A DNA stretch of 64,000 bases, taken from positions 1,053 to 65,052 of the forward strand of contig JBBQZI010000001.1 in assembly GCA_038207855.1 (NCBI GenBank). The letters run 5' to 3'. The DNA comes from Burkholderiales bacterium (lineage in GTDB: Bacteria > Pseudomonadota > Gammaproteobacteria > Burkholderiales > Burkholderiaceae_C). Numbering within the stretch: position 1 is the first letter of the stretch; each line of letters starts with the position of its first letter. Below, in pieces: positions 32,068-56,794 of the stretch. The notes below the pieces were generated by a model that had not been told where the DNA came from, ran no database searches, and saw only the letters and a list, made by a program, of their open reading frames with translations. A program made the position numbers and the translations under genes.

Positions 32068-32121
32068 AAATTAGCTTCTAGCCCTTATAAAATAAGCGCT
32101 AGAAGCTATTATATTGATAGC
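32068..32121 (+). repeat. 54-bp element copy 6 (intergenic, DUF971-ubiE)
   Basis: AAATTAGCTTC-TAGCCC-TTATAAAATA-AGCGCTAGAA-GCTAT-TATATTG-ATAGC. Confidence 0.9.
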
Positions 32122-32127
32122 TATCAA

Positions 32128-32582: not shown

Positions 32583-35500
32583 TCAGACCAGCACGCGCTC
32601 AATGCCGCCATCATTGGCCAGCTTAACGTAATCGGGCATCCACTGGTCACCCAGAATTTGATTGGCCATTTCGACCACAATGTAATCCGCTTCCAGCAAG
32701 CCGTTTTGCAGGTCTTCGCCAAAGCGGCTCAAGCCTTGCAAACAAGCCGGGCACGAGGTCAGCATTTTGATGTTGGCTTGTGGGCCCACCGCACCGGAGG
32801 CGCGCAACTGCGCTTCACCCTTACGGATTTCTTCTTCCTTGCGAAAACGCACCTGGGTTGAGATGTCCGGCCGATTCAGCGCCAGCGTGCCGGATTCACC
32901 GCAGCAGCGCTCCGACTGGATCACGTTGTCACCCAGCAAGGCCTTGACGGTTTTGAGCGGTTCCTGCAGCTTCATCGGGCTGTGACACGGGTCGTGGAAC
33001 AAAAAGCCACCGGCATTGGGCAGCGTGATGCCCTTCTCAAGCAAGTACTCATGGATGTCAATCATGCGGCTGCCCGGAAATATCTTGTCAAACTCGTAAT
33101 CCTGCAACTGGTCATAACACGTGCCACAACTCACCACCACGGTCTTGATGTCGAGGTAATTGAGCGTGTTGGCCACGCGGTGAAACAGCACGCGGTTGTC
33201 GGTGATCATCTTCTCGGCTTTGTCAAACTGACCACCGCCGCGCTGCGGATAACCGCAACACAAGTAGCCCGGTGGCAGCACGGTTTGCACCCCCGCGTGC
33301 CACAGCATGGCCTGCGTAGCCAAGCCAACCTGGCTGAACAAACGCTCCGATCCACAACCAGGGAAATAAAACACCGCTTCGGTCTCGGCCGTGGTGGTGT
33401 TCGGGTTGCGGATGATCGGCACGTAGTCTTTGTCTTCAATATCGAGCAAGGCACGCGCGGTTTTCTTCGGCAGGCCACCCGGCAACTTCTTGTTGACGAA
33501 GTGGATGATCTGCTCTTTGATAGGGGCCGTGCCCAACGTGGCCGGCGGTGCCTTGGTCTGCTTGCGGCCGATGACCCTAAACACATCGACCGCCATGCGC
33601 TGCGCCCTAATCGCCACATTGACCATCACCGAACGGGCTAGTCTGATGGTCTCCGGGTTGCTCGCATTGAGCAAAAACATGGCCGCAGCACCGGCTGGAC
33701 GGAACGTCTTCTTGCCCATCTTGCGCAACAGGTTGCGCATGTTCATGGAAACATCACCAAAATCAATGTTCACCGGGCACGGGCTCAAACACTTGTGGCA
33801 CACCGTGCAGTGGTCCGCCACGTCTTCAAACTCTTGCCAATGCTTGATCGACACACCGCGGCGCGTCTGCTCTTCGTACAAAAACGCTTCCACCAGCAGC
33901 GAGGTCGCCAAAATCTTGTTGCGCGGGCTATAGAGCAAATTGGCGCGCGGCACATGGGTGGCGCACACCGGTTTGCACTTGCCACAGCGCAGGCAATCTT
34001 TGATGCTGTCGGCAATCGCACCAATGTCGCTCTGCTGCATGATGAGCGACTCATGGCCCATCAAGCCAAAACTTGGCGTGTAGGCGTTGGTCAGGTCGGC
34101 ATATATAGGTAAATTGCCCTCTAGCCCATGTCCTGCTTGCGTAAGTAGCTCCTTATTTCGAAGCAACTTACCTTTGTTGAATCGCCCTTCGGGGTCAATC
34201 CTGGCTTTGTAGTCGGTGAACGGCTGCAGTTCGGCATCGGTCAAAAATTCAAGCTTGGTGATGCCAATGCCGTGCTCTCCCGAGATCACGCCGTCCAGCG
34301 AACGCGCCAGCGCCATGATGCGTTTGACCGCGCCATGGGCGGCTTGCAGCATCTGGTAATCGTCGCTGTTGACCGGGATATTGGTGTGCACATTGCCATC
34401 ACCGGCGTGCATGTGCAGCGCCACCCAAACGCGGCCTTTGAGCACACGCTGGTGGATCGCGTTGCATTCCTTCAAGATCGGCTCAAAAGCCGCGCCTGAG
34501 AAAATTTGCTGCAAAGGCTGACGAATTTGCGTCTTCCAGCTGGCGCGCAAGGAATGGTCCTGCAGCTGGATAAACAGCGGCTCCACATCCTGCAGCCAGC
34601 CGGCCCAAAGCCTGCGAACCTCGCTCAGCAGACCCAGCGCCTGGGCGACCCGGTCTTCCAGCAACTCTGCAGCAGTAATATCACCCGCATCATCCAAATG
34701 GCCCAAAGGCAACTTGCCCTGGCTGAAAAAATCTTCCAACGCATCGCACAGCGCCAGTTTGTTGGCCAGACTGAGCTCGATGTTGATGCGCTCAATGCCA
34801 TCGGTGTATTCGGCCATGCGCGGCAACGGAATCACCACGTCTTCATTGATCTTGAAAGCGTTGGTGTGCTTGGAAATCGCCGCGGTGCGCTTGCGATCCA
34901 GCCAGAACTTTTTGCGCGCCTCGGGGCTGATGGCAATGAAACCCTCGCCGTGGCGGGTATTGGCCATGCGCACCACTTCACTGGTAACGCGCGCCACGTC
35001 GTCCGCATCATCGCCGGCAATATCGCCAAACAGCACCATCTTGGGCACCGTGCTGCTGGAGCCCGCTTGCTGCAATCCACCGCGCTTGCTCTTGGTCGCA
35101 TACCCGACCGCCTTCAGGTAACGGTCGTCCAGGTGTTCCAGCCCGGCCAGTACCACACCGCTGCGCTTTTGCTCAGCAAACATGTAGTCCTTGATGTCCA
35201 CAATGCTCGGCACCGCGTCTTTGGCATTGCCAAAAAACTCCAGACAGACGGTGCGGGTGTGTTTGGGCATGCGGTGCACCACCCAGCGCGCGCTGGTGAT
35301 CAGGCCGTCGCAACCCTCTTTTTGAATGCCGGGCAGACCGCTCAAAAACTTGTCGGTCACGTCCTTGCCCAAGCCTTCTTTGCGGAACGTCTTGCCGGGA
35401 ATATCCAGCCGCTCAGTGCGCAACGGGGTCTTGCCATCGGCCTTGAAATACTGCAGCTCAAAACTGGCCACCTCGACGTCATGGATCTTGCCCATGTTGT

Positions 35501-36515
35501 GGTTGATGCGGGTCACCTCGAGCCACTCGGCCTGTGGCGTCACCATGCGCCAACTGGCCAGGTTGTCCAGCGCCGTACCCCACAGCACAGCCTTCTTGCC
35601 GCCGGCATTCATGGCAATGTTGCCGCCAATGCACGAGGCCTCGGCCGAAGTCGGGTCGACCGCAAAAACGAAACCGGCGCGTTCGGCTGCTTGCGACACG
35701 CGCTGCGTCACCACACCGGCTTCGGTCCAGACGGTGCCGACCTCGTGCTCCAAGCCAGGCAGGCGACGCATTTCGACCTCAGTCATCGCCTCCAATTTTT
35801 CGGTGTTGATCACCACGCTTTTCCAGGTCAATGGAATCGCGCCGCCGGTGTAGCCAGTGCCGCCGCCGCGCGGAATGATGGTCAAACCCAGCTCGATACA
35901 GCCCTTGACCAGGTGCGCCATTTCAACCTCGGTGTCGGGTGTCAGCACCACAAACGGGTACTCGACGCGCCAGTCGGTGGCATCGGTCACATGACTGACC
36001 CGCGACAGGCCATCAAATTTGATGTTGTCTTTGGCGGTTAATTTGGACAAAGTTTTTTGCGCTTTGCGACGCAGCATGGCGGTTTCAACAAACGCTGCAT
36101 CAAACGCCTGCACCGCCTGGCCCGCCGCTTCGAGCAGACGGCCAACCAGCGCATCGCGCTCAGGATCAAACTGGGGTGTGCGACGCTTTTGCACCTCGCT
36201 CAAGCGGTGCTGCAAGGCCTCTACCAGCAGCACCCGGCGTTTCGGGTTGTCCAGCAGGTCATCCTGCAAATAGGGGTTGCGCTGGACTACCCAAATATCA
36301 CCCAGCACCTCGTACAACATGCGCGCCGAACGGCCCGTGTGACGCTCTTCACGCAGGCGGTTCAGCCAACCCCAGGCTGCATCGCCCAGCAGGCGAATGA
36401 CGATTTCTCGGTCAGAAAAAGAGGTGTAGTTGTAGGGGATTTCGCGAATGCGTTCCTGCCCGTGTGGCACAGAGGCATCGGGCAACAAATGGAGGGCTTG
36501 AGTGGGAGCGTTCAT
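32583..36515 (-). CDS. Large FAD-linked oxidase / Fe-S oxidoreductase (DUF3683 type)
   Basis: [30 protein letters not shown], two CxxCxxCxxxC motifs, C-terminal CCG domains. Confidence 0.9.
34111..34164 (+). repeat. 54-bp element copy 7 (inside the FAD oxidase gene, antisense)
   Basis: AAATTGCCCTC-TAGCCC-ATGTCCTGCT-TGCGTAAGTA-GCTCC-TTATTTC-GAAGC; protein reads [18 protein letters not shown]. Confidence 0.88.
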
Positions 36516-36742
36516 GGGTTCTAGGCAAGGACAGCCGTTGCGGGGTCAATTGCACAAAATACAAGCGCCCGTAGCTGGGCAGGCGATGTTACCGCAGCGC
36601 AGCATTGCCCTACTGGGGAGGTGGTCGAGATCAGCCAATCGAAACGATTGCACGCCCTGAGCACTTTGTTTGCAGCGGTCATCTCAGCATAAACCCTGAT
36701 GACGACACCCAGTAATCTGCGTTTAATCAAGATTCACGCAGA

Positions 36743-36787
36743 GTGACATACTTTTGACGCAAATGTTTCACATCTGGTCGTTATGCT
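36743..36787 (+). promoter_or_regulatory. Putative tandem Pho boxes and -10 upstream of ugpB
   Basis: 11-bp-period units GTGACAT-ACTT / TTGACGC-AAAT / GTTTCAC-ATCT, then TATGCT at 36782; loose match only. Confidence 0.35.
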
Positions 36788-36814
36788 TCGCCCTGTCACT
36801 TATAGGAGACCTTG

Positions 36815-38125
36815 ATGAAATTGAAACTGGCATTGCTTGCCGTTGCGGCAACATTTACGCTTTCTGCGCAAGCCGCAACCGAAATCCAGTGGTGGCACTC
36901 CATGACAGGCGGCAATGGCGACCGAGTCACCAAGATGGCCGAAGGCTTCAACGCCAGCCAGAGCAACTACAAAGTCGTCCCGGTCTACAAGGGCCAATAC
37001 GCCGAGTCGATGACGGCTGCCATTGCCGCCTACCGGGCCGGCGCAGCACCCAACATCGTGCAGGTGTTCGAGGTCGGCACAGCGACGATGATGTCAGCCA
37101 AGGGCGCGATCAAGCCGGTGTACCAATTGATGAAGGAATCTGGCGAGAAGTTTGACCCCAAGGTCTACGTGAAGGCTGTCGCTGGCTACTACACCGATCG
37201 CAATGGCAACATGTTGTCGTTCCCTTTCAACTCATCAACAGTTGTTTTCTACATCAATAAGGACGCGTTCAAGAAGGCTGGACTGGACCCGAACGTAGCA
37301 CCAAAGACCTGGAAAGAATTCGCTATAACGGCTGGCAAACTCAAGGCCAGCGGTCAGCAATGTGTCTACACGACAGGCTGGCCATCATGGGTGCACGTGG
37401 AAAACTTCAGCGCCTGGCACAACCTGCCCATCGGCACGCTTGAAAATGGCATGGGTGGCACGGCGACCGAGTTCAAAATCAATTCGCCGCAGCACGTTGC
37501 GCACATCCAGGAAATGGCTCAGTTCGCCAAAAATGGCTGGTTTACCTATAGCGGACGAACCAATGAGGGCGAAGCACGCTTTTTCAGTGGCGAATGTGCC
37601 ATGTTGACATCGAGCTCTTCAGCGCTTGATAAGATCAACGCAAGCGCCAAGTTCCCGTTCTCCGTTAACTTCATGCCTTACGACGACAGCATCAAGGGTG
37701 CGCCGCAAAATGCCATCATCGGTGGTGCCAGCCTGTGGGTACTCGGCGGCAAGAAGCCGGTCGAATACAAGGGCGTGGCGCAGTTCCTGAACTACCTCTC
37801 CAGCCCTGAACTGCAGGCCAAATGGCATCAGGGCAGCGGCTACGTGCCGATCACTTACGCGGCAGCCGAACTCACTGCCAAGTCTGGCTTCTACCTGACA
37901 CACCCGGGTGCCGACGTGGCTGTGAAAGAACTCAACCTGAACCCACCGACCGCCAACTCAAAGGGCCTGCGGTTTGGCAACTTCGTCCAGGGGCGCGCGG
38001 TGATCGAGGAAGAGATTGAAGCCGCACTCGCCGGCAAAAAGACCGCTCAGGCCGCGATGGACGATGCCGTTTCGCGTGGCAATGACATCCTGCGCAAGTT
38101 CCAGCGTAGCGCCGGAGACAACTGA
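36815..38125 (+). CDS. ugpB: sn-glycerol-3-phosphate ABC transporter substrate-binding protein
   Basis: Signal peptide, WWHSM, QVFEVGTATMM, PFNSST, IIGGASLW. Confidence 0.95.
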   Translation: MKLKLALLAVAATFTLSAQAATEIQWWHSMTGGNGDRVTKMAEGFNASQSNYKVVPVYKGQYAESMTAAIAAYRAGAAPNIVQVFEVGTATMMSAKGAIKPVYQLMKESGEKFDPKVYVKAVAGYYTDRNGNMLSFPFNSSTVVFYINKDAFKKAGLDPNVAPKTWKEFAITAGKLKASGQQCVYTTGWPSWVHVENFSAWHNLPIGTLENGMGGTATEFKINSPQHVAHIQEMAQFAKNGWFTYSGRTNEGEARFFSGECAMLTSSSSALDKINASAKFPFSVNFMPYDDSIKGAPQNAIIGGASLWVLGGKKPVEYKGVAQFLNYLSSPELQAKWHQGSGYVPITYAAAELTAKSGFYLTHPGADVAVKELNLNPPTANSKGLRFGNFVQGRAVIEEEIEAALAGKKTAQAAMDDAVSRGNDILRKFQRSAGDN

Positions 38126-38142
38126 GCCTCGTTTGCACCATC

Positions 38143-38177
38143 AACACCGGCCGCGGTCAATTACCGCTGTCGGTGTT
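38143..38177 (+). other. Intercistronic stem-loop between ugpB and ugpA (likely mRNA stabiliser or partial terminator)
   Basis: AACACCGGCCGCGGT-CAATT-ACCGCTGTCGGTGTT. Confidence 0.55.
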
Positions 38178-38191
38178 ATGCCTGAGCCACC

Positions 38192-39073
38192 ATGGATAAA
38201 CGTGTTTTCTTTCGTTCTCGCTGGCTGCCCTATCTATTGGTTGCGCCGCAACTCGCCATCACGATAGTGTTTTTCTTCTGGCCTGCTGGTCAGGCGCTGT
38301 GGTTTGCGTTTCTACGCCAGGACGCATTCGGCATGAATGCCGAATTCGCCGGTCTTGAAAACTTCATCTACCTGTTCAACGATTCCGCCTACCTCGATTC
38401 ATTCAGGGTAACCGCCATCTTTTCTCTGCTAGTGGCGACTGGCGGCATCGTGATCGCGCTGGCGCTGGCGGTGCTGGCCAACCGCGTCATCCGCGGTGCG
38501 CTGCTGTACCGAACGCTGCTGATCTGGCCCTATGCGGTGGCAGCCGCCGTAGCGGGGGTGTTGTGGGGCTTCCTGTTTGCGCCATCAATCGGCATCGTGA
38601 CCTTTGTTTTGAAACAGTTTGGCATCGACTGGAACTGGGTGCTGCAGGGCGACCAAGCCATGCTGCTGGTCGTGATCGCGTCGATCTGGAAACAGATTTC
38701 ATACAACTTTCTGTTCTTTCTCGCTGGTTTGCAATCCATTCCAAAATCCCTCATAGAGGCTGCCGCCATTGACGGTGCACGCCCGATGCGGCGCTTCTGG
38801 ACCATCGTCTTTCCGCTGCTATCGCCGGTAACGTTCTTTTTGCTGGTCGTCAACATCGTCTATGCATTCTTCGACACTTTTGGTGTCATCGATGCCACCA
38901 CTGGCGGCGGACCTGCCGGGGCGACGCAGATTCTTGTCTATAAAGTCTATGTCGATGGTGTCAAATCGGCTGACCTCGGGGGCTCGTCGGCCCAGTCGGC
39001 AATTTTGATGTTGATCGTCGTTGCCCTGACCGTGGTTCAGTTCCGGTTCGTGGAACGTAAGGTAACTTACTGA
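38192..39073 (+). CDS. ugpA: G3P ABC transporter permease
   Basis: [18 protein letters not shown] motif. Confidence 0.95.
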
Positions 39074-39921
39074 TGGTCGAACACCGCCCGGTACTGACGT
39101 TCATGACGCATCTGGTGCTGGTGCTCGGCATCATCGTTATCGCCTTTCCTTTGTACGTCACTTTTGTCGCTTCAACCTTGACGCTTGATCAAGTGCTTGA
39201 GGTGCCGATGCGGCTGCTGCCAGGCGACCAGTTCTGGGCCAACTACAGCCAGGTACTAAGTTCGGGTTCGACACGGGGTTCTTCCGCGCCGGTGGCGCAG
39301 ATGATGCTCAACAGCCTCATCATGGCGCTGGTGATTGCGGTCGGCAAGATCGCCATCTCGATCATCAGTTCATTTGCCATCGTCTACTTCCGATTCCCGC
39401 TGCGCAAATTCTTCTTCTGGATGATTTTCATCACCCTGATGCTGCCAGTCGAGGTGCGCATCATCCCGACCTTCAAGGTGGTGGCCGACCTGGGCATGCT
39501 CAACAGTTACGCTGGCTTGACCCTGCCGCTGATCGCGTCTGCCACTGCAACGTTTCTGTTCCGCCAGTTCTTCATGACGGTGCCCGACGAGCTCGCCGAG
39601 GCCGCGCGCATGGACGGCGCTGGGCCCATGCGCTTTTTTTTCGATGTGCTGCTGCCGCTGTCGGCGACCACCATCGCAGCACTGTTCGTGATCCAGTTCA
39701 TCTACGGCTGGAACCAGTACTTGTGGCCACTGCTGATTACCAATGACGAGTCGATGTACACGGCCGTCATCGGCATCAAGCGCATGATTGTGGGCGGCGA
39801 CGCGTTGACCGAGTGGAACCTCGTCATGGCCACCGCCATCCTAGCGATGCTGCCGCCAGCGCTGGTCGTGGTGTTGATGCAGAAGTGGTTTGTCAAAGGG
39901 CTGGTCGATACGGAAAAGTAA
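39073..39921 (+). CDS. ugpE: G3P ABC transporter permease
   Basis: [28 protein letters not shown]. Confidence 0.95.
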
Positions 39922-40949
39922 TGGCTTCAATCACATTAAAAAATATCGTCAAGCGCTACGGCACGGGCAAAACTGCCAACCAGGTCATCCACGGGGTTAG
40001 CGCCGACATTTTGGACGGCGAATTCGTCGTCATTGTCGGGCCCTCTGGCTGCGGCAAGTCCACCCTATTGCGCATGGTGGCTGGACTGGAAGAAGTTACT
40101 GGCGGCGATATTTCGATTGGCAACCGGGTCGTCAACAAGCTGGAGCCGTCGGAGCGCGACATCGCCATGGTGTTCCAAAACTATGCGCTGTACCCGCACA
40201 TGAGTGTGTTTGACAACATGGCCTACGGACTGAAAATTGCCAAGGTTCCGCCAAGTGAAATCAAGGCGCGGGTCGACAAGGCCGCCAAAATACTGGAGAT
40301 TGGTGCGTTTTTGATGCGTAAGCCGCGCGACCTGTCGGGTGGTCAGCGCCAGCGCGTTGCCATGGGCCGTGCCATCGTGCGACAGCCGCAGGTGTTTTTG
40401 TTTGACGAACCTTTGTCCAATCTGGATGCCAAGCTGCGTGCCCAGACCCGCCTTGAAATCCAGAAACTGCACCGCGAACTCGGCATCACCAGCCTGTTTG
40501 TTACCCACGATCAGGTTGAAGCCATGACGCTGGCCCAACGCATGATGGTGATGAATGCCGGCGTGATGGAGCAGTTTGGCACGCCAGAAGAGGTCTACAA
40601 CCGACCGGCCAGCACTTTCGTGGCTGGCTTCATGGGCTCGCCACCGATGAATTTATTGCAAAACGCCCCTGACGCACCGGCCAACACCATCGTCGGCATT
40701 CGCCCCGAACACCTGGACATTACCCCGAGTGGCTGGGGATTGAAGGTTGAGGCGGTTGAGATGCTGGGCGCCGAGCGACTCACCTATGGCCGCTGGACCC
40801 ACGGCAGCGCTGACGAATTGGTCATCATCCGCACCGAAGAATCGCACGCCGCGCCCGCGCTGGGCAGCACCATCTGCGTCACGCCCCGCTCGGACAAAAT
40901 TCACCACTTTGAGGCGGCGAGCGGCAAACGCAAAGAGATCACCACATGA
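39921..40949 (+). CDS. ugpC: G3P ABC transporter ATPase
   Basis: [26 protein letters not shown]; TAATG overlap with ugpE. Confidence 0.95.
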
Positions 40950-41719
40950 AAACCACACTGACAAATTGGCCCTATCCACGTTGGGTTGCCCACCGCGGCG
41001 CCGGCAAACTGGCCCCCGAAAATACGCTGGCGGCTTTTCGTTGCGGTGCTGCCCACGGCTACCGCATGTTCGAATGCGATGTCAAGCTGAGTGCTGATGA
41101 CGTGCCGTTTTTGATGCACGACGACACTTTGCAGCGCACCACCAATGCGCGCGACGTACTCGGCGCGGGCCAAAGCGCCGTGGCTGGCGACTACCCGTGG
41201 GGCAAACTAGCCATGCTTGATGCAGGCAGTTGGCATTCCCGCGCCTTTGTTGGCGAACCGTTGCCGACATTTGAGGCGATTGCCCGCTACTGCCTGCACA
41301 ACCATTATTTTTTGAACATCGAAATCAAACCCACTCCGGGCACCGAATACCACACCGGCCAGGTAGTGGCGCAGCATGCCGCGCGGCTCTGGCTTGGCGC
41401 TGCGGTGCCGCCTTTGATGACCTCATTTGATGTGGCAGCACTGGAAGGAGCGCTGCAAGCCCAGCCCGAATTGCCGCGCGGCCTGTTGCTGGAATACCTG
41501 TGGACCGGCTGGCTGGAAACCGCGTTGCGCCTGGGTTGTGTGGCCATCGTGTGCGACCACGCGCTGTGGGACACCTCCAGCATCACCCAAGCCAAAAGCG
41601 CCGGTTTCAGAACGCTGAGCTACACCGTCAATGAGCTAACAACGGCACAACAATTGATCGATTTGGGCGTGGACGGCATCATCACCGACCGGGTTGATTT
41701 GTTTTCACCTGCAGCCTGA
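40946..41719 (+). CDS. ugpQ: Glycerophosphodiester phosphodiesterase
   Basis: [31 protein letters not shown]. Confidence 0.95.
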
Positions 41720-41752
41720 ATGCAAGCCATTGCAGCGCACGGCAACAGCGGT

Positions 41753-42031
41753 TCAGCTCCGCCAGCCGCGCTGCAACCACCACTGACAACTTGCAGCACA
41801 CGCCACCAAAGCCAGGTAGGTCAGCATCATGCCATCATGCCCAAATAGCAACAGTCCAGCAACAAGCAGCACCACGCATACTACAAAATTAATAGCTATC
41901 TGTGCAAGCAGTCTATGGGCTGCAGGTCTTTTTTTCATAAAAATCTTGGACAGGATCGGCACCAGCAAGGCCAGCCAGAAGGCCGGTGCCAGTAAGTTGA
42001 TGGCGTGGTTGAGCAGCGCGAGAATGCCCAT
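41753..42031 (-). CDS. Small membrane protein of unknown function
   Basis: About three hydrophobic segments; divergent from hemA. Confidence 0.7.
   Translation of the reverse strand: MGILALLNHAINLLAPAFWLALLVPILSKIFMKKRPAAHRLLAQIAINFVVCVVLLVAGLLLFGHDGMMLTYLALVACAASCQWWLQRGWRS
41880..41933 (-). repeat. 54-bp element copy 8 (inside the small membrane protein gene)
   Basis: AAAAAGACCTG-CAGCCC-ATAGACTGCT-TGCACAGATA-GCTAT-TAATTTT-GTAGT; reads KRPAAHRLLAQIAINFV. Confidence 0.8.
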
Positions 42032-42102
42032 CAATGGATCCTTGAGGAAAAGAAAAAATGATACAAGTCAAAGTGCATGGACAGTGATTTTATAATCTGG
42101 CC

Positions 42103-43362: not shown

Positions 43363-43482
43363 CTGCACTGCCGTTGCAGCCCAGCCGATGCTTGGGTCAG
43401 CAAGAATACTTGCAGATCGGATGAGCACAGCGTCATCCGACCATTCACTTGCCATTTTTGGTTTTACCCCACCTCACTCGCC

Positions 43483-44601: not shown

Positions 44602-44607
44602 GTAACC

Positions 44608-44661
44608 AAATATGCTTCTAGCCCTTATGTAACATGCGTAAGTAGCTATTATTTATATAGT
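44608..44661 (+). repeat. 54-bp element copy 9 (fills the prfA-prmC spacer)
   Basis: AAATATGCTTC-TAGCCC-TTATGTAACA-TGCGTAAGTA-GCTAT-TATTTAT-ATAGT. Confidence 0.92.
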
Positions 44662-44663
44662 AA

Positions 44664-45844: not shown

Positions 45845-45951
45845 AGCCCTGCGCAATGCCACGTCCAACCCTGCCGCTGTCAGGGTTTCATCAAAAACAC
45901 GATCAAACAAAAGTGAAATAATCACGCCCATTATTTAGAGGACATCCAACC

Positions 45952-46269
45952 ATGAGCGACACCCAACAACGCATTGACGACCTGGTCAAACAAAACGACA
46001 TTTTGCTGTTCATGAAAGGCACGGCAAGCTTTCCGCAATGCGGCTTTTCGGGCCGTGCCGTGCAGATTTTGAAAGCTTGCGGGGTTGACCCCAAAGCCAT
46101 CAAAACCGTCAACGTGCTTGAAGACGATGAAATTCGTACCAGCATCAAGGACTACAGCAACTGGCCGACGATTCCGCAGTTTTACCTGAAGGGTGAATTC
46201 ATCGGCGGCTCAGACATCATGATGGAAATGTATGAAAACGGCGAGTTGCAAAAACTGCTGAACCCTTAA
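45952..46269 (+). CDS. grxD: Monothiol glutaredoxin Grx4
   Basis: FMKGT, CGFS, WPTIPQ, GGSD. Confidence 0.96.
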   Translation: MSDTQQRIDDLVKQNDILLFMKGTASFPQCGFSGRAVQILKACGVDPKAIKTVNVLEDDEIRTSIKDYSNWPTIPQFYLKGEFIGGSDIMMEMYENGELQKLLNP

Positions 46270-46889
46270 TCCCACAGCCGCTTGGCCCCTAGCACCGCGT
46301 TGGGGTAAGCGGCCTGCCCGCGTGAGCCGTTGTAGCGGCCCAGCGCCAGGAACAAGTCGCCGCCCTCACGGTCCAGATAGTGGCGCAAGATGACACAGCC
46401 AAAGCGCAAGTTGGTCTGCATGTTAAACAGCTTGCCGGCATCGCCATCGCCCAGCAGCCGCGTCCAAAACGGCATCACCTGCATGTAGCCGCGCGCGCCG
46501 ACGCTGCTGACGGCAAATTTGCGGAAATTGCTCTCCACCTGGATCAATCCCAACACCAGCGACACATCAAGCCCAGCGCGCGTGGCTTCATACCAGACGG
46601 ACTGCAAAAACTCTTGGCGCACCCTCCAGTCGGGTTTCTTCTTTCTCAGTCGCTCGCTCATGACACCCAGCCAGCGCAGGTAAACCAGCCGTGATTCGGT
46701 GTCTGGAAACTCCGGAACCAAAGGGGCATGGTTCGCAATGGCAGAGCTCAGCGCTGTCCGCACCGAGTCAATCAACGGCTCCTCGGCCTGCCTGCCAGCC
46801 CAGGATTGCTCTTGAAACAAGAGCGCACTAAGCCCTGCTAATCTGGGCAAAGTCCGTAAAACGCTTGCTATAAAGGTGCGCCGGGTCAA
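46266..46889 (-). CDS. Lytic transglycosylase (SLT domain)
   Basis: IQVES, GARGYMQVMP, YNG motifs; RR-containing N-terminus. Confidence 0.9.
   Translation of the reverse strand: MTRRTFIASVLRTLPRLAGLSALLFQEQSWAGRQAEEPLIDSVRTALSSAIANHAPLVPEFPDTESRLVYLRWLGVMSERLRKKKPDWRVRQEFLQSVWYEATRAGLDVSLVLGLIQVESNFRKFAVSSVGARGYMQVMPFWTRLLGDGDAGKLFNMQTNLRFGCVILRHYLDREGGDLFLALGRYNGSRGQAAYPNAVLGAKRLWD
46808..46861 (-). repeat. 54-bp element copy 10 (degenerate, inside the SLT N-terminus)
   Basis: TTTTACGGACT-TTGCCC-AGATTAGCAG-GGCTTAGTGC-GCTCT-TGTTTCA-AGAGC; same spacing. Confidence 0.6.
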
Positions 46890-46931
46890 TTCAATCCTTT
46901 ATTAATCGCAATAGTCCATTTGACCAAGTAG

Positions 46932-46985
46932 CGTCATTCCCGCGAAAACGGAAATCCAGTGCTCCGATCGTCATGGATGCCCGCC
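46932..46985 (+). repeat. CGTC-type REP-like palindromic element overlapping the proS 3' end
   Basis: CGTCATTCCCGCGAAAACGGAAATCCAG...TGGATGCCCGCC. Confidence 0.65.
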
Positions 46986-48722
46986 AGCCAGTTTGCCAAT
47001 CAGGAGCGCGGCGATGTCAGACAGAGGTACCGCCGTGGCGGCATCGTCGCGGCGGTGCTGGTATTCAACGTTGCCTTCTTTCAATGCCCGGTCGCCAATG
47101 TTGACGCGGTGCGGCACACCAATCAGCTCCCAGTCGGCAAACATGGCACCTGGGCGTTCGCCACGGTCGTCCAACATCACGTCCACGCCAGCAGCCAGCA
47201 ACGCGCAATAGAGCGACTCCGAGGCCGCTTTCACTTCGGCTGAGCGATCGGCGTTGATCGGGCAAATCACCACGGTGAAGGGTGCCAGCGCATCGGGCCA
47301 GATGATGCCACGGGCGTCGTGGTTTTGCTCAATGGCAGCAGCGGGCAAGCGGGTGATGCCGATGCCATAGCAGCCCATTTCCATGAACTGCGGTTTGCCG
47401 TTGTGGTCCAAGAAAGTGGCTTTCATGGCCTGGCTGTATTTGGTGCCTAGGTAAAACACATGGCCCACTTCAATGCCGCGCTCAATCGCCAGCACGCCTT
47501 GGCCGTCGGGCGATGCGTCACCGGCCACCACGTTGCGCAGGTCTGCCACCACGGTCGGGTCAGGCAAATCGCGACCCCAATTGACACCTGTGAAGTGATA
47601 GTCTTCTTCGTTGGCACCGCAAACCCAGTCGCTCATCACAGCGACCTCGCGGTCAACCACCAGCTTGACCGGCTGTTTCAAACCAAGAGGGCCGAGGTAG
47701 CCCGGTTTGCAACCAAAGTGATCTTCAATCTCGGGCACACTGGCAAAGCGGAACGCACTAAGGCCGGGTAATTTACCAACCTTGACCTCGTTCATGTCAT
47801 GGTCACCGCGCAGCAGCAGCAGCCAGACTTGCGTTTTGACGATTTCACCCTTTTCATTGAGCGCATCGGTGGCGAGTACCAGTGACTTGACCGTGTGCTG
47901 CAGCGGCAGACCCAGCAGGTCGGCCACGGCAGCACAGGTACTCTTGCCCGGTGTAGCGGTTTTATTCATCGATTGAGTGCCCGCCTTGGGTGGACCAACC
48001 GGGGCCAGTGCTTCGGCTTTTTCCATGTTGGCGGCGTAATCGCTGCCCGGACAATAAACAATGGCGTCTTCACCGGTGGCGGCAATCACCTGGAACTCTT
48101 CACTTAAATCACCACCAATGGCACCGCTATCCGCCGCCACCGCGCGGTAGGTCAGACCGAATCGGTCAAAAATACGCCGGTAGGCAGCGGCCATGACCTG
48201 GTAGCTGGCTTGTGCCGAAGCCTGGTCGCGGTCAAAGCTGTAGGCATCTTTCATGATGAACTCACGGCCCCGCATCAGACCAAAGCGCGGCCGGCGCTCG
48301 TCGCGAAATTTGGTCTGGATCTGGTAAAAATTCTTTGGCAACTGCTTGTAGCTGCGAATTTCCTGGCGCGCGATATCGGTAATCACTTCTTCGCTGGTCG
48401 GCTGCACGACAAAGTCGTTGCCGTGACGGTCTTTGATCCGCAGCAGCTCCGGGCCCATTTTGTCAAAGCGGCCGGTTTCCTGCCAAAGCTCGGCCGGTTG
48501 AACCACCGGCATGCTGAGCTCCACGGCCCCCGCGCGATTCATTTCTTCACGCACGATCGCCTCCACTTTTTGCACCACGCGCAAGCCCATCGGCATCAGC
48601 GTGTAAATGCCGGCCCCGAGCTTTTTGATCATGCCGGCGCGCATCATCAGCTTGTGGCTGACCACTTCGGCATCCGCTGGGGCCTCTTTGAGAGTTGAAA
48701 TAAAAAATTGAGAGGCTTTCAT
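46971..48722 (-). CDS. proS: Proline--tRNA ligase
   Basis: [37 protein letters not shown]. Confidence 0.97.
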
Positions 48723-48814
48723 GGGCAAATCCAGCAATAAAGACAGGGTTGATTCGCTTGATTCACAGCAAGGGCTGTGCATAATCGAAGCAATTTAAAA
48801 ATTGGGGTTTGATT

Positions 48815-49408
48815 ATGCTTGACCGGGACGGCTTTAGGCCGAACGTCGGCATCGTCCTGCTCAACCAGAAAAATCAGGTGTTTTGGGGCAAGCGTATTCG
48901 GACGCACTCCTGGCAGTTTCCGCAAGGTGGCATCGATCGGGGCGAAACCCCCGAGCAAGCCATGGTGCGTGAACTGCATGAAGAAGTTGGCCTGCAACGC
49001 GAGCATATTCGCATTGTGGCCCGCACCCGAGACTGGTTGCGCTATGAGGTGCCAGACCGTTTTATACGCCGCGACTCACGCGGTTTTTACAAGGGCCAGA
49101 AGCAAATCTGGTTTTTGCTGCAACTGGTCGGCCACGACTGGGATTTGAACTTGCGTGCCACAAGCCACCCCGAGTTTGATGCCTGGCGCTGGAATGACTA
49201 CTGGGTTCCGCTCGATTCGGTGGTGGAGTTCAAGCGTGAGGTCTATGTGACGGCGCTCACCGAGTTGTCGCGCTATGTGCCGCGTGGCAACGAGCATCGC
49301 AACCGATTTTTGCGCCAAGGATGCACCGAGATGCCGGGTGCCAACTTTGAGCTACCGCCAGGTGGAACTTTTGAGCCAGACCAGCAAACCGGAAATGAAC
49401 ATGTTTGA
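48815..49408 (+). CDS. rppH: RNA pyrophosphohydrolase
   Basis: [30 protein letters not shown]. Confidence 0.96.
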
Positions 49409-49901
49409 CTTGCGATTGTTTTGCCTGCGCTTATTGGGCCTTGCGTGTCTGGTGGGTACCAGCCTTGGGGTCTCTGCGCAATTGGCCGATCAAGACCCAG
49501 ACTGGAAAGAATCCGACACGCCCGCGCCACCGGCCTTCAGCCACAACAAACTGTTGCCGCTGGACATGCCGCCCTATGTCTCGGTGCGATTTGGCATCGA
49601 CCCGGCGACGATCACCATCACGCCCGACGGCATCGTCCGCTATGTGGTGGTCACCACCAATGCCAGCGGCTCGGTCAATGCGCAGTTTGAAGGCATTCGG
49701 TGCGCCACCGGTGAGGTCAAAACCTACGCCCGTGCCAGCGGTGCTGGCGCATGGTCGATTATTCAAACGCCAGAGTGGCGCGGCTTAACTGACAACCAAC
49801 CCTCCAAACATGCCTGGGTCTTTGCGCGACAGGCAGCCTGCGATGGACGTGCCGCAGCGGCCAGTTCAACCGCTGACATCATCAGAGCCATGAAAAAGTA
49901 A
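49395..49901 (+). CDS. CNP1-like family exported protein
   Basis: Signal peptide, WKE..PPAF, DGIVRY, EGIRC. Confidence 0.8.
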
Positions 49902-49937
49902 GCTGCAAACCGTCGGCTGAGCGGTGCTTACCGGGAT

Positions 49938-51083
49938 TTAACGGGGTTTAGCGGCCAGCACCAGGTTATCGCGGTGCACCATCTCGGGCTCGGCCGCGTA
50001 GCCCAGCAAGGCCTCAAACGCGGCAGACGGTTTACGACAAATCAGGCGCGCCTCGGCGCTGGCGTAATTGGCCAAACCGCGGGCCACCTCAGTGCCATTG
50101 GCAGCACGAATCGCAATCACATCACCACGCGAAAAATCACCCTCCACGCCGGTCATACCAATCGGCAGCAGGCTGGAGCCGCCCAGACGGAGTTTTTCAA
50201 CGGCACCGGCATCCACCGTGACGGAGCCACGCATTTGGAGATGATCAGCGATCCACTGTTTGCGTGCCTGGGTCTTCTGCGTCGGAGCCACCAGCAGCGT
50301 GCCAATCGACTCACCCAAACTCAACCGTAACAGCGCATCGGGCTCACGACCCCAGGCGATGATGGTCGAGGCACCCGAACCCGCCGCCCGCTTGGCCGCC
50401 AATATTTTGGTGATCATGCCGCCACGGCCCAGGCTGGAGCCAGCGCCACCCGCCATGACTTCCAGGGCCGGATCACCGGCTTGCGCCGTATGAACAAATT
50501 GAGCGCTGGTATCTTTGCGCGGGTCGGCGGTGTACAGTCCTTTTTGATCAGTCAAAATCACCAACGCGTCGGCCTCGACCAGATTGGCCACCAACGCACC
50601 CAGGGTGTCGTTGTCACCAAACTTGATCTCGTCGTTGACCACGGTGTCGTTCTCGTTGATGACCGGCACCACACCAAGTTTGAGCAGAGTCAACAAGGTC
50701 GAGCGGGCATTCAGGTAGCGTTCGCGGTCAGCCAGATCGGCGTGCGTGAGCAGCACCTGGGCGCTGCCCAGACCATGCTCGCGCAGCTTGGTTTCGTACA
50801 TTTGCGCCAGACCCATTTGCCCAACGGCGGCGGCGGCCTGCAATTCATGGATGGCACGGGGTCGCGTGGTCCAGCCCAGGCGCTTCATGCCTTCGGCAAT
50901 AGCACCGCTGGAGACCATGATGACCTCACGCCCCTGCTTCACCAGCACCGCCATCTGCCGGCACCATTCACCAATGGCAACTTCGTCCAGGCCTCGTCCC
51001 TCATTGGTCACCAGGCTGGAGCCTACTTTGACGATCACACGGCGGGCATCACGCAATGGAGAATGAGCTTTTTCTTGAGTCAT
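49938..51083 (-). CDS. proB: Glutamate 5-kinase
   Basis: VKVGSS, VSSGA, INENDTV, FGDND, GGMITK, PUA domain. Confidence 0.97.
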
Positions 51084-51135
51084 TTTGGCCTGTAGCCCTT
51101 TTACTATATGCGCAAGTAGCTATTAAATATATAGC
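51082..51135 (+). repeat. 54-bp element copy 11 (fills the obgE-proB spacer)
   Basis: ATTTTGGCCTG-TAGCCC-TTTTACTATA-TGCGCAAGTA-GCTAT-TAAATAT-ATAGC. Confidence 0.92.
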
Positions 51136-51138
51136 AAA

Positions 51139-52537
<1,399 letters not shown>

Positions 52538-52548
52538 GACTCAGCTCC

Positions 52549-52860
52549 TTATGCAGTGATGGCGCCGATCAGCAGTTCAGTGAACTGCTGGCGATGCCCT
52601 TGACGTTTTTGATAGTGCTTGCGACGGCGCATTTTGAAAATGCTGACCTTGTCGTGCTTACCATGTGCCAACACTGTGACACTAACAGTTGCGCCGGACA
52701 CCAAGGGTGTGCCAACCTTTAACTCTGCGCCGCTACCGACTGCCAGAACCTGGTCAAACACAATCTCTTGGCCAACGTCCGCAGCAATCTGTTCTACTTT
52801 AATTTTTTCGCCAGCAGCAACTTTATATTGTTTGCCACCAGTTTTTATGACCGCGTACAT
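52549..52860 (-). CDS. rplU: 50S ribosomal protein L21
   Basis: [18 protein letters not shown]. Confidence 0.98.
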
Positions 52861-53007
52861 ATTAACCTCTTCGATATAGCTCCGCGAACGGATTTTCGCA
52901 GAGCCTCGGATTATGTCACAGCACAACCTGAAGCGCAAATAAAGCGTTTCAGGCCGTCCCAAAACCACTGCAAACATAGTGCAAACGCGCCGTGGGACAA
53001 TCTCAAG

Positions 53008-55071
53008 ATGCACCTACTATTTGAAGAAACCGGAAAATTCCTGGCCGGACGCCTGCTCTCCGAGACCGATGCTTCGGCACAGGTCGAGCTTGATAGCGGC
53101 AAACGGGTCAAGGTCAAGGCGGCCAATATCCTGATCAAGTTCGACAAGCCCGAACCAGCCCAGCTGATGGCAGCCGGACAGGCCGTCGCCAGCGGCATCG
53201 AGCTGGAGCTGGCTTGGGAGTTTGCCAACGAAGAAGAGTTTGGCTTTGCCGACTTGGCACGCGATTATTTTTCCGCCCAGGCCACTCTGGCTGAGCAGGC
53301 CGGCATGTTGTTCGCCTTGTATGACGCGCCGCATTACTTTCGCCGCGCCGGCAAAGGGCGCTTTCGCAAAGCTTCGGCTGACATTTTGGCGCTGGCGCTG
53401 GCCGCTATCGAGAAAAAGAAACAAGTCGCCCTGCAAATTGAAGATTGGGTGAAGGCCTTGAGTGCGGGCGAGTGCCCGCAGCCAATTCGCGACCAGCTCT
53501 ACAAAATTCTGTTCAAACCCGACAAAAACGCGCCAGAGTACAAGGCGGTGGTTGAGGCCTCACGCGCCACCCATCTGGGTCCGCTGGACCTGCTGATCAA
53601 GGCCGGTGCGATCGATTCACCCTACCAGTTTCACTGGAAGCGCTTTCTGCTGGAAAACTTCCCCAAAGGCACCGGTTTCCCAAAAGTTGAGGCTCCGCTC
53701 ATCACCGACGAGTTGGCTCTGTCCACGGCCCGCGCCTTCTCGATTGACGACTCAGCCACCACCGAGATTGACGATGCCCTGTCGGTTCAGGGCCTGGGTA
53801 GCGGCACGGTGCTGCTGGGCATTCACATCGCCGCGCCAGGCCTGGCCATCAAACCGGGTAGCGCGATTGACCAGCTCGGCCGCTCGCGCCTGTCGACCGT
53901 TTACATGCCGGGCTACAAGCTCACCATGCTGCCCGACGAGGTGGTGCAAAACTACACCCTGATGGAGGGTCGCGACTGCCCGGCCGTGTCGCTGTATGTC
54001 ACGCTTGATGAGGCCACGCTGGAGATCAAGGAAAGCGTGACCAAGCTGGAGCGGGTGCACATCGGGGCCAATTTGCGCCACGATCAGTTGGATGCCGTGG
54101 TCACGACCGCTTGGTTGGAAGACCCAGCGTTTATGCATGAAATTGACCCGCATCCCTTACAGAATAAGCGCGAGCAGCTATCATTTTTATTCCGCTTGGC
54201 AAAAGACCTGAAAGCCAAGCGCGAGATCGTGCGCGGCAAGCCCGAGAACTTCAACCGGCCCGATTACAACTACCGGCTGGTCGGCAATGACGGCGCTGAG
54301 CCACAAGGCTCCGAAGAAGTGCACATCAGCATTCGCCAGCGCGGCGCACCGCTCGATTTGATTGTGTCCGAGGCCATGATTCTGGCCAACAGCACCTGGG
54401 GCGGCTGGATGGCTGAGTTGGGTGTGCCGGGCATTTACCGCAGCCAGGCCAGCATGGCACCGGGCGTGAAGGTGCGCATGGGAACCAAAGCGCAGCCGCA
54501 CGCCGGTATTGGCGTGAAAAGCTATGCCTGGAGCAGCTCGCCACTGCGCCGCTACGTTGATCTGGTTAACCAATGGCAAATCATTGCCTGTGCCCGCCAC
54601 GGCAAAACTGCTGCGCTAGCGGCCCCCTTCAAGCCCAAAGATGCCGAGCTGTTTTCCATCATCAGCAGCTTTGATGCGGCCTACTTTGCCTACAACGGTT
54701 TTCAGAACGCCATGGAGCGCTTCTGGATTTTGAAATACATCGAGCAGCAAGGCATTACCGAAATTGAGGCCACCCTGTTCAAAGACAACCTGGTGCGGGC
54801 CGACCACCTGCCGCTGGTATTGCCGGTAGCCGGGGCGCAAAGCCTGCCACGCGGCGCGCGCGTGATGGTGCGCCTGGGTGACATTGACGAGGTGTCGCTG
54901 GATATTCACGGCACCGTCACGGCGCGGCTGGATGCCGAGCCCGATGCAGCCCTGGACGACGAGGCAGAAGACGACGACACCGTGGTTGGGCCGATTGCCA
55001 TTGCCATGGACCTCAGCGATGGCGAAGCTTCCGGCAGCGCCGCTGCCCCTGGCGATCATCCCGAGCCGTGA
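53008..55071 (+). CDS. RNB-domain (RNase II/R family) exoribonuclease
   Basis: [15 protein letters not shown] catalytic motif, [17 protein letters not shown]; start trimmed to MHLLFEE. Confidence 0.9.
54140..54193 (+). repeat. 54-bp element copy 12 (inside the RNB gene)
   Basis: AAATTGACCCG-CATCCC-TTACAGAATA-AGCGCGAGCA-GCTAT-CATTTTT-ATTCC; reads [17 protein letters not shown]. Confidence 0.75.
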
Positions 55072-55925
55072 ACCTGCGGTCATTCAGCACCCTGCAAATC
55101 GCGCTTGGCGCGTCCATTGCCGTGCACGCAGTACTGCTGACGGTGCGCTTTGTCGACCCTGAAGCCTTCAACCGGGTGTTTGAAGACACCCCGCTGGAAG
55201 TCATTTTGGTCAACGCCCGCACCAACGAGAAGCCTGAAAAAGCCCGCGCCATTGCCCAAGCCAATATGGCCGGTGGTGGTGAGCTGGAAAAGGGTCGTGC
55301 CACCAGCCCGCTGCCGCCCGCCCTGATTTCCATGACGGGCGAAGACAGCGAACAAGACCAGCAGCGCCAATTGCGCGACATGCGCGAGCAGCAAAACCTG
55401 ATGCTCGCGCAAGTCAAGACAATCTTGGCGGCCATGCCACCACCCGATCCACAACAAGTCAACCCGACACCCGAGCAAGCCCTGCGTGAGCAAAAACGCC
55501 GCCAACTGATCCGGCTGCTGGCGGAAATTGAGCGGCGCATCAACGAAGAAAATGCCCGCCCCCGAAAGCGTTACATCAGTCCCGCCACGCGCGAAGCGGT
55601 CTACGCTGTCTACTACGACCATTTGCGCCACGCCATTGAAGACAAAGGCACAGAAAACTTTCCGCAATTAAACGGCCAAAAGCTTTATGGAGAGCTCACC
55701 ATGATCGTCAACGTCAACCACGATGGCCGGGTGATCTCGACTGAAGTGGTGCAAAGCTCAGGTATACCGGCACTCGACCGGCGCGCGCAAGCCATTGCCA
55801 AAAGCGCAGCACCTTTTGGCAAGTTCAGCCCGGCCATGCGCCGCCAGGCAGACCAAATTGCGGTCGTGTCGCGCTTCAAATTCACCCGTGATGACACGCT
55901 TGAAACCAAACTCAGCGCCAAATAA
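55068..55925 (+). CDS. TonB/TolA C-terminal domain protein
   Basis: N-terminal TM helix with SxxxH, coiled coil, SSG..ALD C-terminal domain. Confidence 0.85.
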   Translation: MNLRSFSTLQIALGASIAVHAVLLTVRFVDPEAFNRVFEDTPLEVILVNARTNEKPEKARAIAQANMAGGGELEKGRATSPLPPALISMTGEDSEQDQQRQLRDMREQQNLMLAQVKTILAAMPPPDPQQVNPTPEQALREQKRRQLIRLLAEIERRINEENARPRKRYISPATREAVYAVYYDHLRHAIEDKGTENFPQLNGQKLYGELTMIVNVNHDGRVISTEVVQSSGIPALDRRAQAIAKSAAPFGKFSPAMRRQADQIAVVSRFKFTRDDTLETKLSAK

Positions 55926-55948
55926 AACCAAGCACTTTTAAAGCCACC

Positions 55949-56794
55949 ATGAGCAACGATCTTTATTGCGTGATGGGCCATCCGGTGGCCCACAGTCAAT
56001 CACCCTGGATTCACACCCGTTTTGCTGAACTGACCGGGCAAAAGCTGAACTACACCAAGCGTGAAATCCCGCTCGATCACTTTGCCGACAGCGTGCAAGC
56101 ATTCAACCTTGAAGGCGGACGCGGCTGCAACATCACCGTGCCCTTCAAGTTTGAAGCGGCTGCGCTGGCTACCCACACCAGCGAACGCGCCCGGCTGGCC
56201 CAAGCCTGTAACGTGCTGACTTTCAAAGATGGGCAAATCCTGGCTGACAACACCGATGGCATCGGACTGGTCGATGACATCGAGCAAGGCGCACAAATTG
56301 GGCTGCTGGGAAAACGCATTTTGCTGATGGGTGCCGGTGGTGCAGCCGCTGGCGTGCTGGGGCCGCTGATCCATGCAAAACCGGCCCACATCAGCGTGGC
56401 CAATCGCACAGTCCACAAGGCGGCCGACCTGGTGGCGCGCCACCAGTCGTTAGTATTGCTACAAAATACAGAGCTATCCGCGCATGATTTAAAAGGGCTA
56501 GAGGGTGATTTTGATGTTGTTATCAATGCCACCGCCAGTAGCCTGGGCGGCCATGGCGTACCGGTCAGCGCGACGGTGCTCAAGCCCGGTGCACTGGCCT
56601 ACGACATGATGTACGGGCCCAGTGCCAAGGCTTTCATGGACTGGGCGCGTGCGCACGGTGCCGTGGCGCGTGACGGCCTGGGCATGCTGGTCGAACAAGC
56701 CGCGCAAGCCTTTCTGATCTGGCGTGGTGTCATGCCGCCGGCGCAGCAGGTGCTGGCCGAACTGCGCCAGCACCTGAGCACATCCGCAAAATGA
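55949..56794 (+). CDS. aroE: Shikimate dehydrogenase
   Basis: HSQSP, NITVPFK, NTDG, GAGGAA, NRT, INAT, GLGMLVEQA. Confidence 0.96.
   Translation: MSNDLYCVMGHPVAHSQSPWIHTRFAELTGQKLNYTKREIPLDHFADSVQAFNLEGGRGCNITVPFKFEAAALATHTSERARLAQACNVLTFKDGQILADNTDGIGLVDDIEQGAQIGLLGKRILLMGAGGAAAGVLGPLIHAKPAHISVANRTVHKAADLVARHQSLVLLQNTELSAHDLKGLEGDFDVVINATASSLGGHGVPVSATVLKPGALAYDMMYGPSAKAFMDWARAHGAVARDGLGMLVEQAAQAFLIWRGVMPPAQQVLAELRQHLSTSAK
56458..56511 (-). repeat. 54-bp element copy 13 (inside aroE, antisense)
   Basis: AAATCACCCTC-TAGCCC-TTTTAAATCA-TGCGCGGATA-GCTCT-GTATTTT-GTAGC; protein reads LQNTELSAHDLKGLEGDF. Confidence 0.85.

Follow-up and report, generated by a model that had tools for sequence, protein, structure and literature searches.

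A dispersed 55-nucleotide DNA word at gene ends and inside reading frames of a Rhodoferax relative, with signs of upkeep at the DNA level

How can one DNA word persist inside the reading frames of unrelated genes, including frames in which its consensus supplies stop codons? The question is raised by a 64,000-nucleotide stretch of contig JBBQZI010000001.1 (hereafter, the window) from a Burkholderiales bacterium whose assembly (G000; 3.1 Mb, 309 contigs, 58% GC) has Rhodoferax genomes as its close relatives. A repeat search revealed a family of ~55–60-nt repeats on both strands of the window. An earlier note, made from the sequence alone, had placed four copies of the element inside genes (an FAD oxidase, aroE, an SLT-domain gene, and an RNB-domain ribonuclease), claimed that these copies lose exactly the triplets that would be stops, and likened the situation to in-frame Rickettsia palindromic elements (RPEs). 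Our analysis favors, with a probability of about 0.6, the view that the element resembles repetitive extragenic palindromes (REPs), that it enters genes both by insertion and by in-place replacement with minimal removal of stops, and that it would be kept up at the DNA level by a putative reader or drive.

A hidden Markov model (HMM), seeded from seven clear window copies and then iterated over the whole assembly, detected 506 matches at E<1e-3, of which 440 had E<1e-5. Over its 55 nt, the motif carries ~55 bits of information, with ~25 constrained bases. Its consensus blocks TAGCCC (CTAGCCC with the leading C), GCG, AGCTA, and ATAGC are 90–100% kept among G000 copies; the AT-rich spacers between the four blocks are nearly free to vary. 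The exact four-block pattern was found in G000 246 times (133 forward and 113 reverse matches), and the reversed-pattern control gave 0. An Rfam search of the window returned no family match anywhere. Pairwise identity of G000 copies averaged 0.575, nearest-neighbor identity was 0.78 versus 0.73 in a column-shuffled control, and at least 90% identity was reached by just 4 of 127,260 copy pairs. The copies are thus nearly as dissimilar as independent column draws, which argues against recent copy-and-paste bursts, as well as against homogenization of copies by gene conversion. No terminal inverted repeats were seen; nor were target-site duplications seen at the insertion junctions inspected, which have diverged.

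The sites in FAD oxidase, aroE, and RNB genes proved to be genuine repeat copies (Table 1). The fourth site, at position 46808, was rejected: it produced no HMM match at E<10 genome-wide, nor locally with filters off at E≤1e6, and corresponds to the 5′ end of a small minus-strand open reading frame (ORF) with an SLT domain. In a synonymous control, the same peptides were re-encoded either from genome codon usage or by within-gene permutation (2 x 1000 resamplings). The real HMM score was attained in 0/1000 cases for each of the three genes, with shuffle maxima of 23, 27, and 21 bits versus the real 38.6, 43.0, and 29.6 bits for FAD oxidase, aroE, and RNB, respectively. The same control applied to a copy inside gpsA, which was absent from the earlier note, also yielded 0/1000.

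As had been observed in that note, the element is read antisense in FAD oxidase and aroE, and where the consensus has TAG, the genes carry GAG. The quoted shared peptides were found in both proteins (a 14-residue peptide of the FAD oxidase and ELSAHDLKGLEGDF of aroE). The statement that copies read in the sense direction shed their stops is borne out by RNB, in which TAGCCC became CATCCC and the ATAGC block became TTATTC, and falls for the SLT gene, where there is no copy. Unusual codons had also been pointed out, and rare codons are indeed enriched in all three motif segments compared with the rest of the gene (7/19 versus 45/262 in aroE, 9/19 versus 33/282 in FAD oxidase, and 4/18 versus 34/273 in RNB).

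The stop-loss observation, which holds for three of the four sites, generalizes to the whole genome. Copies were assigned to genes using an ORF-score caller, after a classification based on the coding score of 150-nt flanking windows had proved too noisy. By location, the 506 copies divide into 207 inside genes, 201 in intergenic DNA, and 98 that overlap the end of a gene; 187 copies (~37%) are deep intragenic, at least 20 codons from either gene end. The use of sense (S) and antisense (A) frames by deep copies is very uneven: 85 copies are in S2, 62 in A1, 17 in A0 (the frame of aroE and FAD oxidase), 9 in S1, 8 in S0 (the frame of RNB), and 6 in A2. The corresponding peptides are NRPLALxEYAQxAIxxIA in S2, AIxxIAAxAYSIRARGLF in A1, and LLxxxELLxQxxQGLEAxF in A0. 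The consensus is stop-free in S2 and A1 only, and contains four stops in A0 and two in S0. Intergenic copies are open in these frames in 31% (S2), 59.5% (A1), 0.5% (A0), 39% (S1), 2.5% (S0), and 21% (A2) of cases. Given the 0.5% for A0, the use of this frame exceeds ca. 28-fold the prediction of a passive “insert anywhere, keep open” filter (17 observed, 0.6 expected). S1 and A2 are under-used four- to five-fold relative to the same prediction. Thus, frame use does not follow a passive filter, and two stop-free, helix-friendly frames dominate.

In stop-bearing frames, changes are confined to the stop-forming bases. None of the A0 copies has A at position 42 (16 of 17 have C, resulting in GAG, Glu) or at position 21, and their core blocks are still 0.88–1.00 intact. 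In frame S0, 7/8 copies have lost the T of TAGCCC (position 13) and 6/8 the T of ATAGC (position 52). Since intact genes have no in-frame stops, the loss of stops is partly tautological. The non-trivial part is that the rest of the core is unchanged and that a four-stop frame is favored.

Orthologue comparisons point to two modes of entry: insertion of the whole unit in loops or linkers, and in-place replacement of compatible native segments. A clean insertion is seen in FAD oxidase, where the copy encodes 19 residues in the linker after the FAD-oxidase_C domain (Pfam) and Rhodoferax proteins are 18 residues longer at the point where seven other families read KLLPG..GDL. Some Rhodoferax genomes carry the insert in their GluQ-RS-like and MoeA-like genes, while other members of the genus and outgroups cleanly lack it. 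The copies in aroE and RNB, to which the expectation of an insert had extended, lie wholly or partly over native residues. AroE is 4–7 residues longer than orthologues from other families (+4 to +5 aa when set against distant orthologues); relative to V. cholerae AroE (3o8q), the excess is five residues, all located upstream of the motif. The stretch that the motif encodes, which overlies the native strand/loop ahead of the FDxxINAT motif, aligns without gaps. GpsA is likewise five residues longer than Coxiella GpsA (3k96), and its motif-encoded stretch aligns gapless to native residues. RNB has eight additional residues compared with other families, and the 3′ half of its motif overlies the native RE(E/Q)LxxLxRLA helix. 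In PurK (46.6 bits), the motif overlies an Ala-rich helix preceding YVGVLxVEFF, and the block is 39 residues long in G000 versus 38–39 in three other families. Relative to other families, there is zero net length gain in MutS (44.9 bits) or in the DnaE-like protein (51.2 bits).

The net length of all deep copies was surveyed against 2.0 Mb of the 3.6-Mb genome G061, which is from the same family and lacks the motif, resulting in 58 usable sites. The change was −3 to +2 residues at 26 sites, +3 to +8 at 17, +9 to +13 at 5, +14 to +22 at 7, +23 or more at 2, and −4 or less at 1. In 172 control windows from the same proteins, 152 were at −3 to +2 and none at +14 or more. A gain of three or more residues was observed in 55% of motif windows versus 9% of control windows. 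Amino-acid identity to G061 was 0.33 in the motif window and 0.63 in the flanks.

Evidence that the word is maintained as DNA is modest within Rhodoferax. Conservation of synonymous sites, as judged by plain codon identity, was apparent for aroE (0.68 inside versus 0.55 outside the motif) and not for FAD oxidase or RNB (values below). When only rare codons were compared, which corrects for codon bias, retention inside versus outside the motif was 0.47 versus 0.17 in aroE, 0.40 versus 0.29 in FAD oxidase, and 0.34 versus 0.24 in RNB, the orthologues compared not being independent. Across genera, the evidence is strong for aroE and PurK. The aroE site scores 13–37 bits in Polaromonas, Acidovorax, Alicycliphilus, Comamonas, and Paracidovorax, at the same codons as in Rhodoferax, and keeps CTA CAA AAA ACA GAG CTx ... 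CAA GxG CTx GAG. These aroE genes, with ~65% protein identity, are rich in G and C at third codon positions (GC3-rich) elsewhere, and the motif consists of rare codons ending in A or T; the signal is absent at the same length in Variovorax, Ramlibacter, and some Rhodoferax. The PurK site scores 11–31 bits in 12 of 29 other genera, with a third-position A+T content of 0.53–0.79 inside the motif versus 0.07–0.24 in the rest of the gene. Persistence of the aroE and PurK copies at the same codons, as AT-rich islands of rare codons, supports DNA-level maintenance at these sites. The proposal that the DNA motif and the reading frame are both being maintained is therefore strong at aroE (and PurK), and weak at FAD oxidase and RNB.

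The element also has lineage dialects: TAGCCCTTAT in G000, TAGCGCTTAT in the comparison genome G020, and TAGCCCCCGT in G005. For example, the G020 orthologue of the junction copy at position 44608 has TAGCGC in place of TAGCCC. In PurK, the dialect difference is synonymous (GCC/GCG). In FAD oxidase, GGG-CTA versus GCG-CTA corresponds to Gly versus Ala, and in aroE, Gly is found in Rhodoferax versus Ala in Acidovorax-type genomes, which suggests that a lineage dialect can alter the encoded residue. Since the switch was observed in just three of ~7 G000/G020 orthologous pairs, dialect evidence taken alone is suggestive, no more.

Pfam searches with sampled hosts identified ordinary genes, including RecC, PurL, DnaX, PurK, UvrD, and MutS; a class-I tRNA-synthetase-like protein and a DnaE-like PHP protein were also confirmed. 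Five of the 18 sampled hosts, which mostly represent the best-scoring copies and were counted with no correction for gene length, are genome-maintenance genes (RecC, DnaX, DnaE-like, UvrD, and MutS; contigs C71, C13, C80, C18, and C9), echoing reports for REPs and neisserial uptake sequences. Enrichment in conserved genes was rejected, with G061 homologues found for 0.50 of motif-bearing genes versus 0.47 of others (p 0.5). On contig C58 (5005–5057), a 50.6-bit copy in frame A2 lies between OHCU-decarboxylase and M20 peptidase domains in a single open frame; it may bridge two once-separate genes into a fusion, or the gene call may have merged two genes.

Table 1. Copies of the element in the window and the rejected SLT site
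Feature	Position	Strand	Score	Host gene or frame
FAD-oxidase/Fe-S copy	34111..34166	+	38.6 bits, E 2.4e-9 genome-wide	FAD-oxidase/Fe-S fusion gene, 32583..36515, minus strand, 1310 aa; read antisense, frame A0
aroE copy	56457..56511	-	43.0 bits, E 1.1e-10 genome-wide	aroE, 55949..56794, plus strand; read antisense, frame A0, encodes LLQNTELSAHDLKGLEGDF
RNB copy	54140..54190	+	29.6 bits, E 1.7e-6 genome-wide	RNB-domain ribonuclease gene, 52768..55071, plus strand; read sense, frame S0, encodes 18 residues
gpsA internal copy (absent from the earlier note)	14283..14333	-	35.9 bits, E 1.7e-8	gpsA, 13664..14689, minus strand; sense frame S2 (consensus open), between KG and SGPS motifs
Small membrane-protein ORF copy (absent from the earlier note)	41879..41933	-	30.9 bits	frame S2, KRPAAHRLLAQIAINFV
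Reference intergenic or gene-end copy	4004..4058	+	55.5 bits	
Copy overlapping gpsA start	14675..14727	-	41.0 bits	
Gene-end copy	22608..22660	+	33.3 bits	
Intergenic copy	32068..32121	+	48.2 bits	
Copy filling junction of two genes	44608..44662	+	50.4 bits	
Copy filling junction of two minus-strand genes	51082..51136	+	54.3 bits	
Claimed SLT site, not a family member	46808..46861		no HMM match	

Several window loci were compared with G020. The copy in the small membrane-protein ORF is found at the same place there, with the alignment conserved on both flanks, which makes a genuine small membrane protein the probable product of this ORF. In the window, it is a ~95-aa hydrophobic ORF (41760–42065, minus strand; the open frame spanning the copy has 104 codons) that carries the copy in frame and was not called by the gene caller. 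The G020 junction corresponding to the intergenic copy at 32068 has no copy and a spacer ~81 nt shorter (window positions 32025–32153 compared). Conversely, a 33.6-bit copy lies in G020 just past the orthologue of the gene ending at 59222, with none there in G000. The longest RNB ORF begins at TTG, which adds a low-complexity N-terminus (window 52768–53010); the true RNB start is probably further downstream.

Outside the genome under study, the exact four-block pattern matched 17–201 times in 14 of 24 other Rhodoferax genomes and had zero matches in 16 other families of the order, with the reversed-pattern control at ~0. A three-block pattern gave 66–82 matches in two further genera of the family; three more had none. 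Intergenic copies are located near gene ends (median distance ~20 nt). Convergent junctions account for 26% of them versus 13% genome-wide, and divergent junctions for 7% versus 13%. No orientation bias relative to transcription was seen (94/183), and association of orientation with GC skew was weak (odds ratio 2, p 0.002). On G020 contig C1, orientation comes in blocks, with 23 minus and 8 plus copies in the first 0.9 Mb, 18 plus and 6 minus up to 1.66 Mb, and a mixture thereafter; a clean two-replichore pattern was not seen in the part of G020 listed, and the blocks could be due to inversions, local gene strand, or replication.

The G020 dialect forms two adjacent imperfect palindromes, in which TAGCGCTT pairs with AAGCGCTA and AGCTAT pairs with ATAGCT. 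In the G000 consensus, the first stem is degraded, pairing at ~5 of 8 positions. An RNA-type structure was rejected, as there are no covarying pairs among the 506 copies. A REP-associated tyrosine transposase (RAYT) was also sought. Homologues of PF01797 (Y1_Tnp) are present in 5/5 motif-bearing genomes, and also in 3/5 motif-free genomes, and the G000 candidate (C61:5145–5825) has a single weak motif copy on one side only. The RAYT association was rejected, since the gene is not restricted to genomes with the motif and lacks flanking copies. Two further loci, C72:10964–11335 and C64:13188–13501, have a strong IS200/IS605-type Y1 transposase match (150 bits) plus fragmentary Y1_Tnp matches, with no motif copies within 2.5 kb. 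The ~90-bp Betaproteobacterial repeat BRE (PMC3110155), which is often tandem and has only 4 copies in R. ferrireducens, was judged a different element from these two traits alone.

Parts of the same element have very probably been reported before. Tong and Mrazek (2017; PMC5217627) listed as uncharacterized and intergenic, with 4–14% in genes, spaced motif pairs located near gene ends and often between convergent genes, including GCTTAT-N5-AAGCG in Acidovorax ebreus (114 copies) and ATAGCT-N22-CAAAAG in Polaromonas naphthalenivorans (125 copies); Rhodoferax ferrireducens T118 had the most spaced motif pairs of all genomes surveyed. In-frame copies, stop loss, constant-length overlay, and cross-genus conservation are not part of that report. 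The literature found names the motif only as uncharacterized, and its intragenic behavior in Comamonadaceae is undescribed there.

The explanation that we prefer is as follows. The sites are copies of a Comamonadaceae-wide ~55-nt DNA word residing at gene ends and inside reading frames. Cellular machinery, which we infer, would read the word as DNA and keep or regenerate it against GC3 mutation pressure, either because a binding site is under selection or because a drive operates that is akin to those of DNA uptake sequences or REP/RAYT systems. Once placed, the word can stay at identical codons in different genera, forming a rare-codon island, and proteins would adapt around it, resulting in dual coding. 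One close likeness is to GTAG-tagged REPs (Di Nocera et al. 2013; PMC3733652), which supply stop codons and occasionally lie inside repair and replication genes. Like these REPs, the element is headed by xTAG(C), can form short imperfect palindromes (in the G020 dialect), supplies stops, and has some copies in replication and repair genes; its intergenic copies are located tens of bases from gene ends, more often between convergent and less often between divergent genes. Unlike them, ~37% of copies rather than a handful are intragenic, the G000 dialect lacks most of the stem pairing and covariation, and the Y1_Tnp homologue is unflanked by copies and extends to motif-free genomes.

The family might instead be a selfish element similar to RPEs or to MITEs (miniature transposable elements with inverted repeats), all copies of which began as in-frame inserts; only stop-free or rapidly repaired copies at tolerant sites would have survived, to decay neutrally, and apparent maintenance would reflect survivorship and detection bias. 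We consider this rather unlikely. As with RPEs and in-frame MITEs (PMC10969869), a dispersed palindromic repeat is read in frame in unrelated housekeeping genes and yields a stereotyped peptide, and the FAD-oxidase, GluQ-RS-like, and MoeA-like copies, clean inserts of element size (the last two present or absent within the genus), behave in just this way. The excess of length gain in motif windows over controls, the enrichment of full inserts among the best-scoring copies, the synonymous sites of FAD oxidase and RNB, which are not clearly slower, and the intragenic REPs in repair and replication genes of other taxa (PMC3733652) all agree with it. However, RPEs are insertions of ~100–150 bp, whereas the unit here measures ~55 nt, and many copies overlie structured residues with no gain in length: strong copies (36–51 bits) in PurK, MutS, DnaE-like, aroE, and gpsA genes lie in structured segments with a gain of 0 to +5 aa. 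The copies are not near-identical (such pairs are almost absent), terminal inverted repeats and target duplications were not seen, sites are common to several genera, and dialects switch at orthologous sites. Moreover, the aroE and PurK motifs last as rare-codon islands across genera in which synonymous sites are saturated. The analogy with RPEs drawn in the earlier note thus applies to a minority of copies, the true inserts, and breaks down for copies that lie over native residues with little length change.

In a more specific version of the preferred explanation, the drive would be like that of a very long uptake or recombination signal, with better-matching fragments favored and matches building up in place by point mutation at any position where one of the encoded peptides is tolerated. 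We regard this version as improbable, despite a number of shared features. Uptake sequences shape proteomes, with 34.5–65% of copies in ORFs (Findlay and Redfield 2009; PMC2817400), compared with 37–41% here. In common with uptake signal sequences and DNA uptake sequences, the element has hundreds of copies in both orientations, a strong frame bias, some copies in genes without added length, stereotyped peptides, and dialects between related lineages; its conserved orthologous positions and the lack of an orientation preference relative to transcription also agree with such a drive. In contrast, known uptake cores are 9–12 nt, so a word of 55 nt and ~55 bits exceeds the length of every known one several-fold, and the whole-unit insertions are not made by point mutation. 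The motif codons are rare, while uptake sequences favor preferred-codon frames (PMC2817400). The link of orientation to GC skew is weak, genes with and without the motif have G061 homologues about equally often, and no report of sequence-specific uptake in Comamonadaceae was found in the literature. Finally, chance resemblance or a codon-composition artefact of Ala/Leu/Gln-rich helices is very improbable, and is ruled out for three of the four named sites: native Ala/Gln helices do share short strings with the motif center (PurK of G040 has GCACAAGCCGCT where the motif has GCGCAAGCAGCT), and the SLT site was such a false positive, but genome-wide E-values of 1e-6 to 1e-10, the 0/1000 resamplings, and the 0 versus 246 matches of the reversed pattern cannot be accounted for in this way.

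Several observations weigh against the preferred explanation of a REP-like word maintained at the DNA level. HMM detection favors copies with an intact core, which inflates apparent conservation within G000, and gene calls came from a crude home-made caller (2959 genes, 90.6% coding). Within Rhodoferax, synonymous identity inside versus outside the motif is 0.55 versus 0.61 in FAD oxidase and 0.58 versus 0.61 in RNB. Several lineages have lost the DNA signal at the sites studied with length unchanged, so the constraint is not universal. Full inserts account for 6 of the 10 top-scoring copies versus 3 of the 48 others (one-sided hypergeometric p ~4e-4, with a post hoc cut), which fits an insertion-first history. 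Because G061 comes from within the same family, zero net change could mean that both genomes share an old insertion and that its DNA signal has since faded; comparisons with other families or with solved structures escape this caveat. No covariation was detected among the 506 G000 copies (maximum mutual information 0.13).

A further-reaching proposal, which we advance tentatively and would not yet bet on, is that a sequence-reading process writes or rewrites the ~55-nt signal codon for codon onto coding DNA, via an uptake-like drive or templated conversion. If true, hundreds of proteins, PurK, AroE, MutS, and GpsA among them, are made to encode a few stereotyped peptides whose residues switch with lineage dialect, and the word would be the longest known dispersed signal that is dual-coded with protein.

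Overlapping DNA and protein codes are usually short, as in the case of uptake sequences, Chi, and binding sites, or are plain insertions, as in the case of RPEs. The system described here is testable, since some of the genera concerned are tractable (Acidovorax, Comamonas) and related genomes that carry or lack the motif are available. In Comamonadaceae, the motif can lead gene callers and alignments astray, as well as selection scans like the ratio of nonsynonymous to synonymous substitution rates (dN/dS). The reading frames of ~190 genes in a single genome accommodate a 55-nt word that dictates 18 residues in each and appears to outlast the divergence of genera; it would thus shape the protein sequence of core enzymes and create islands of rare codons within their genes.

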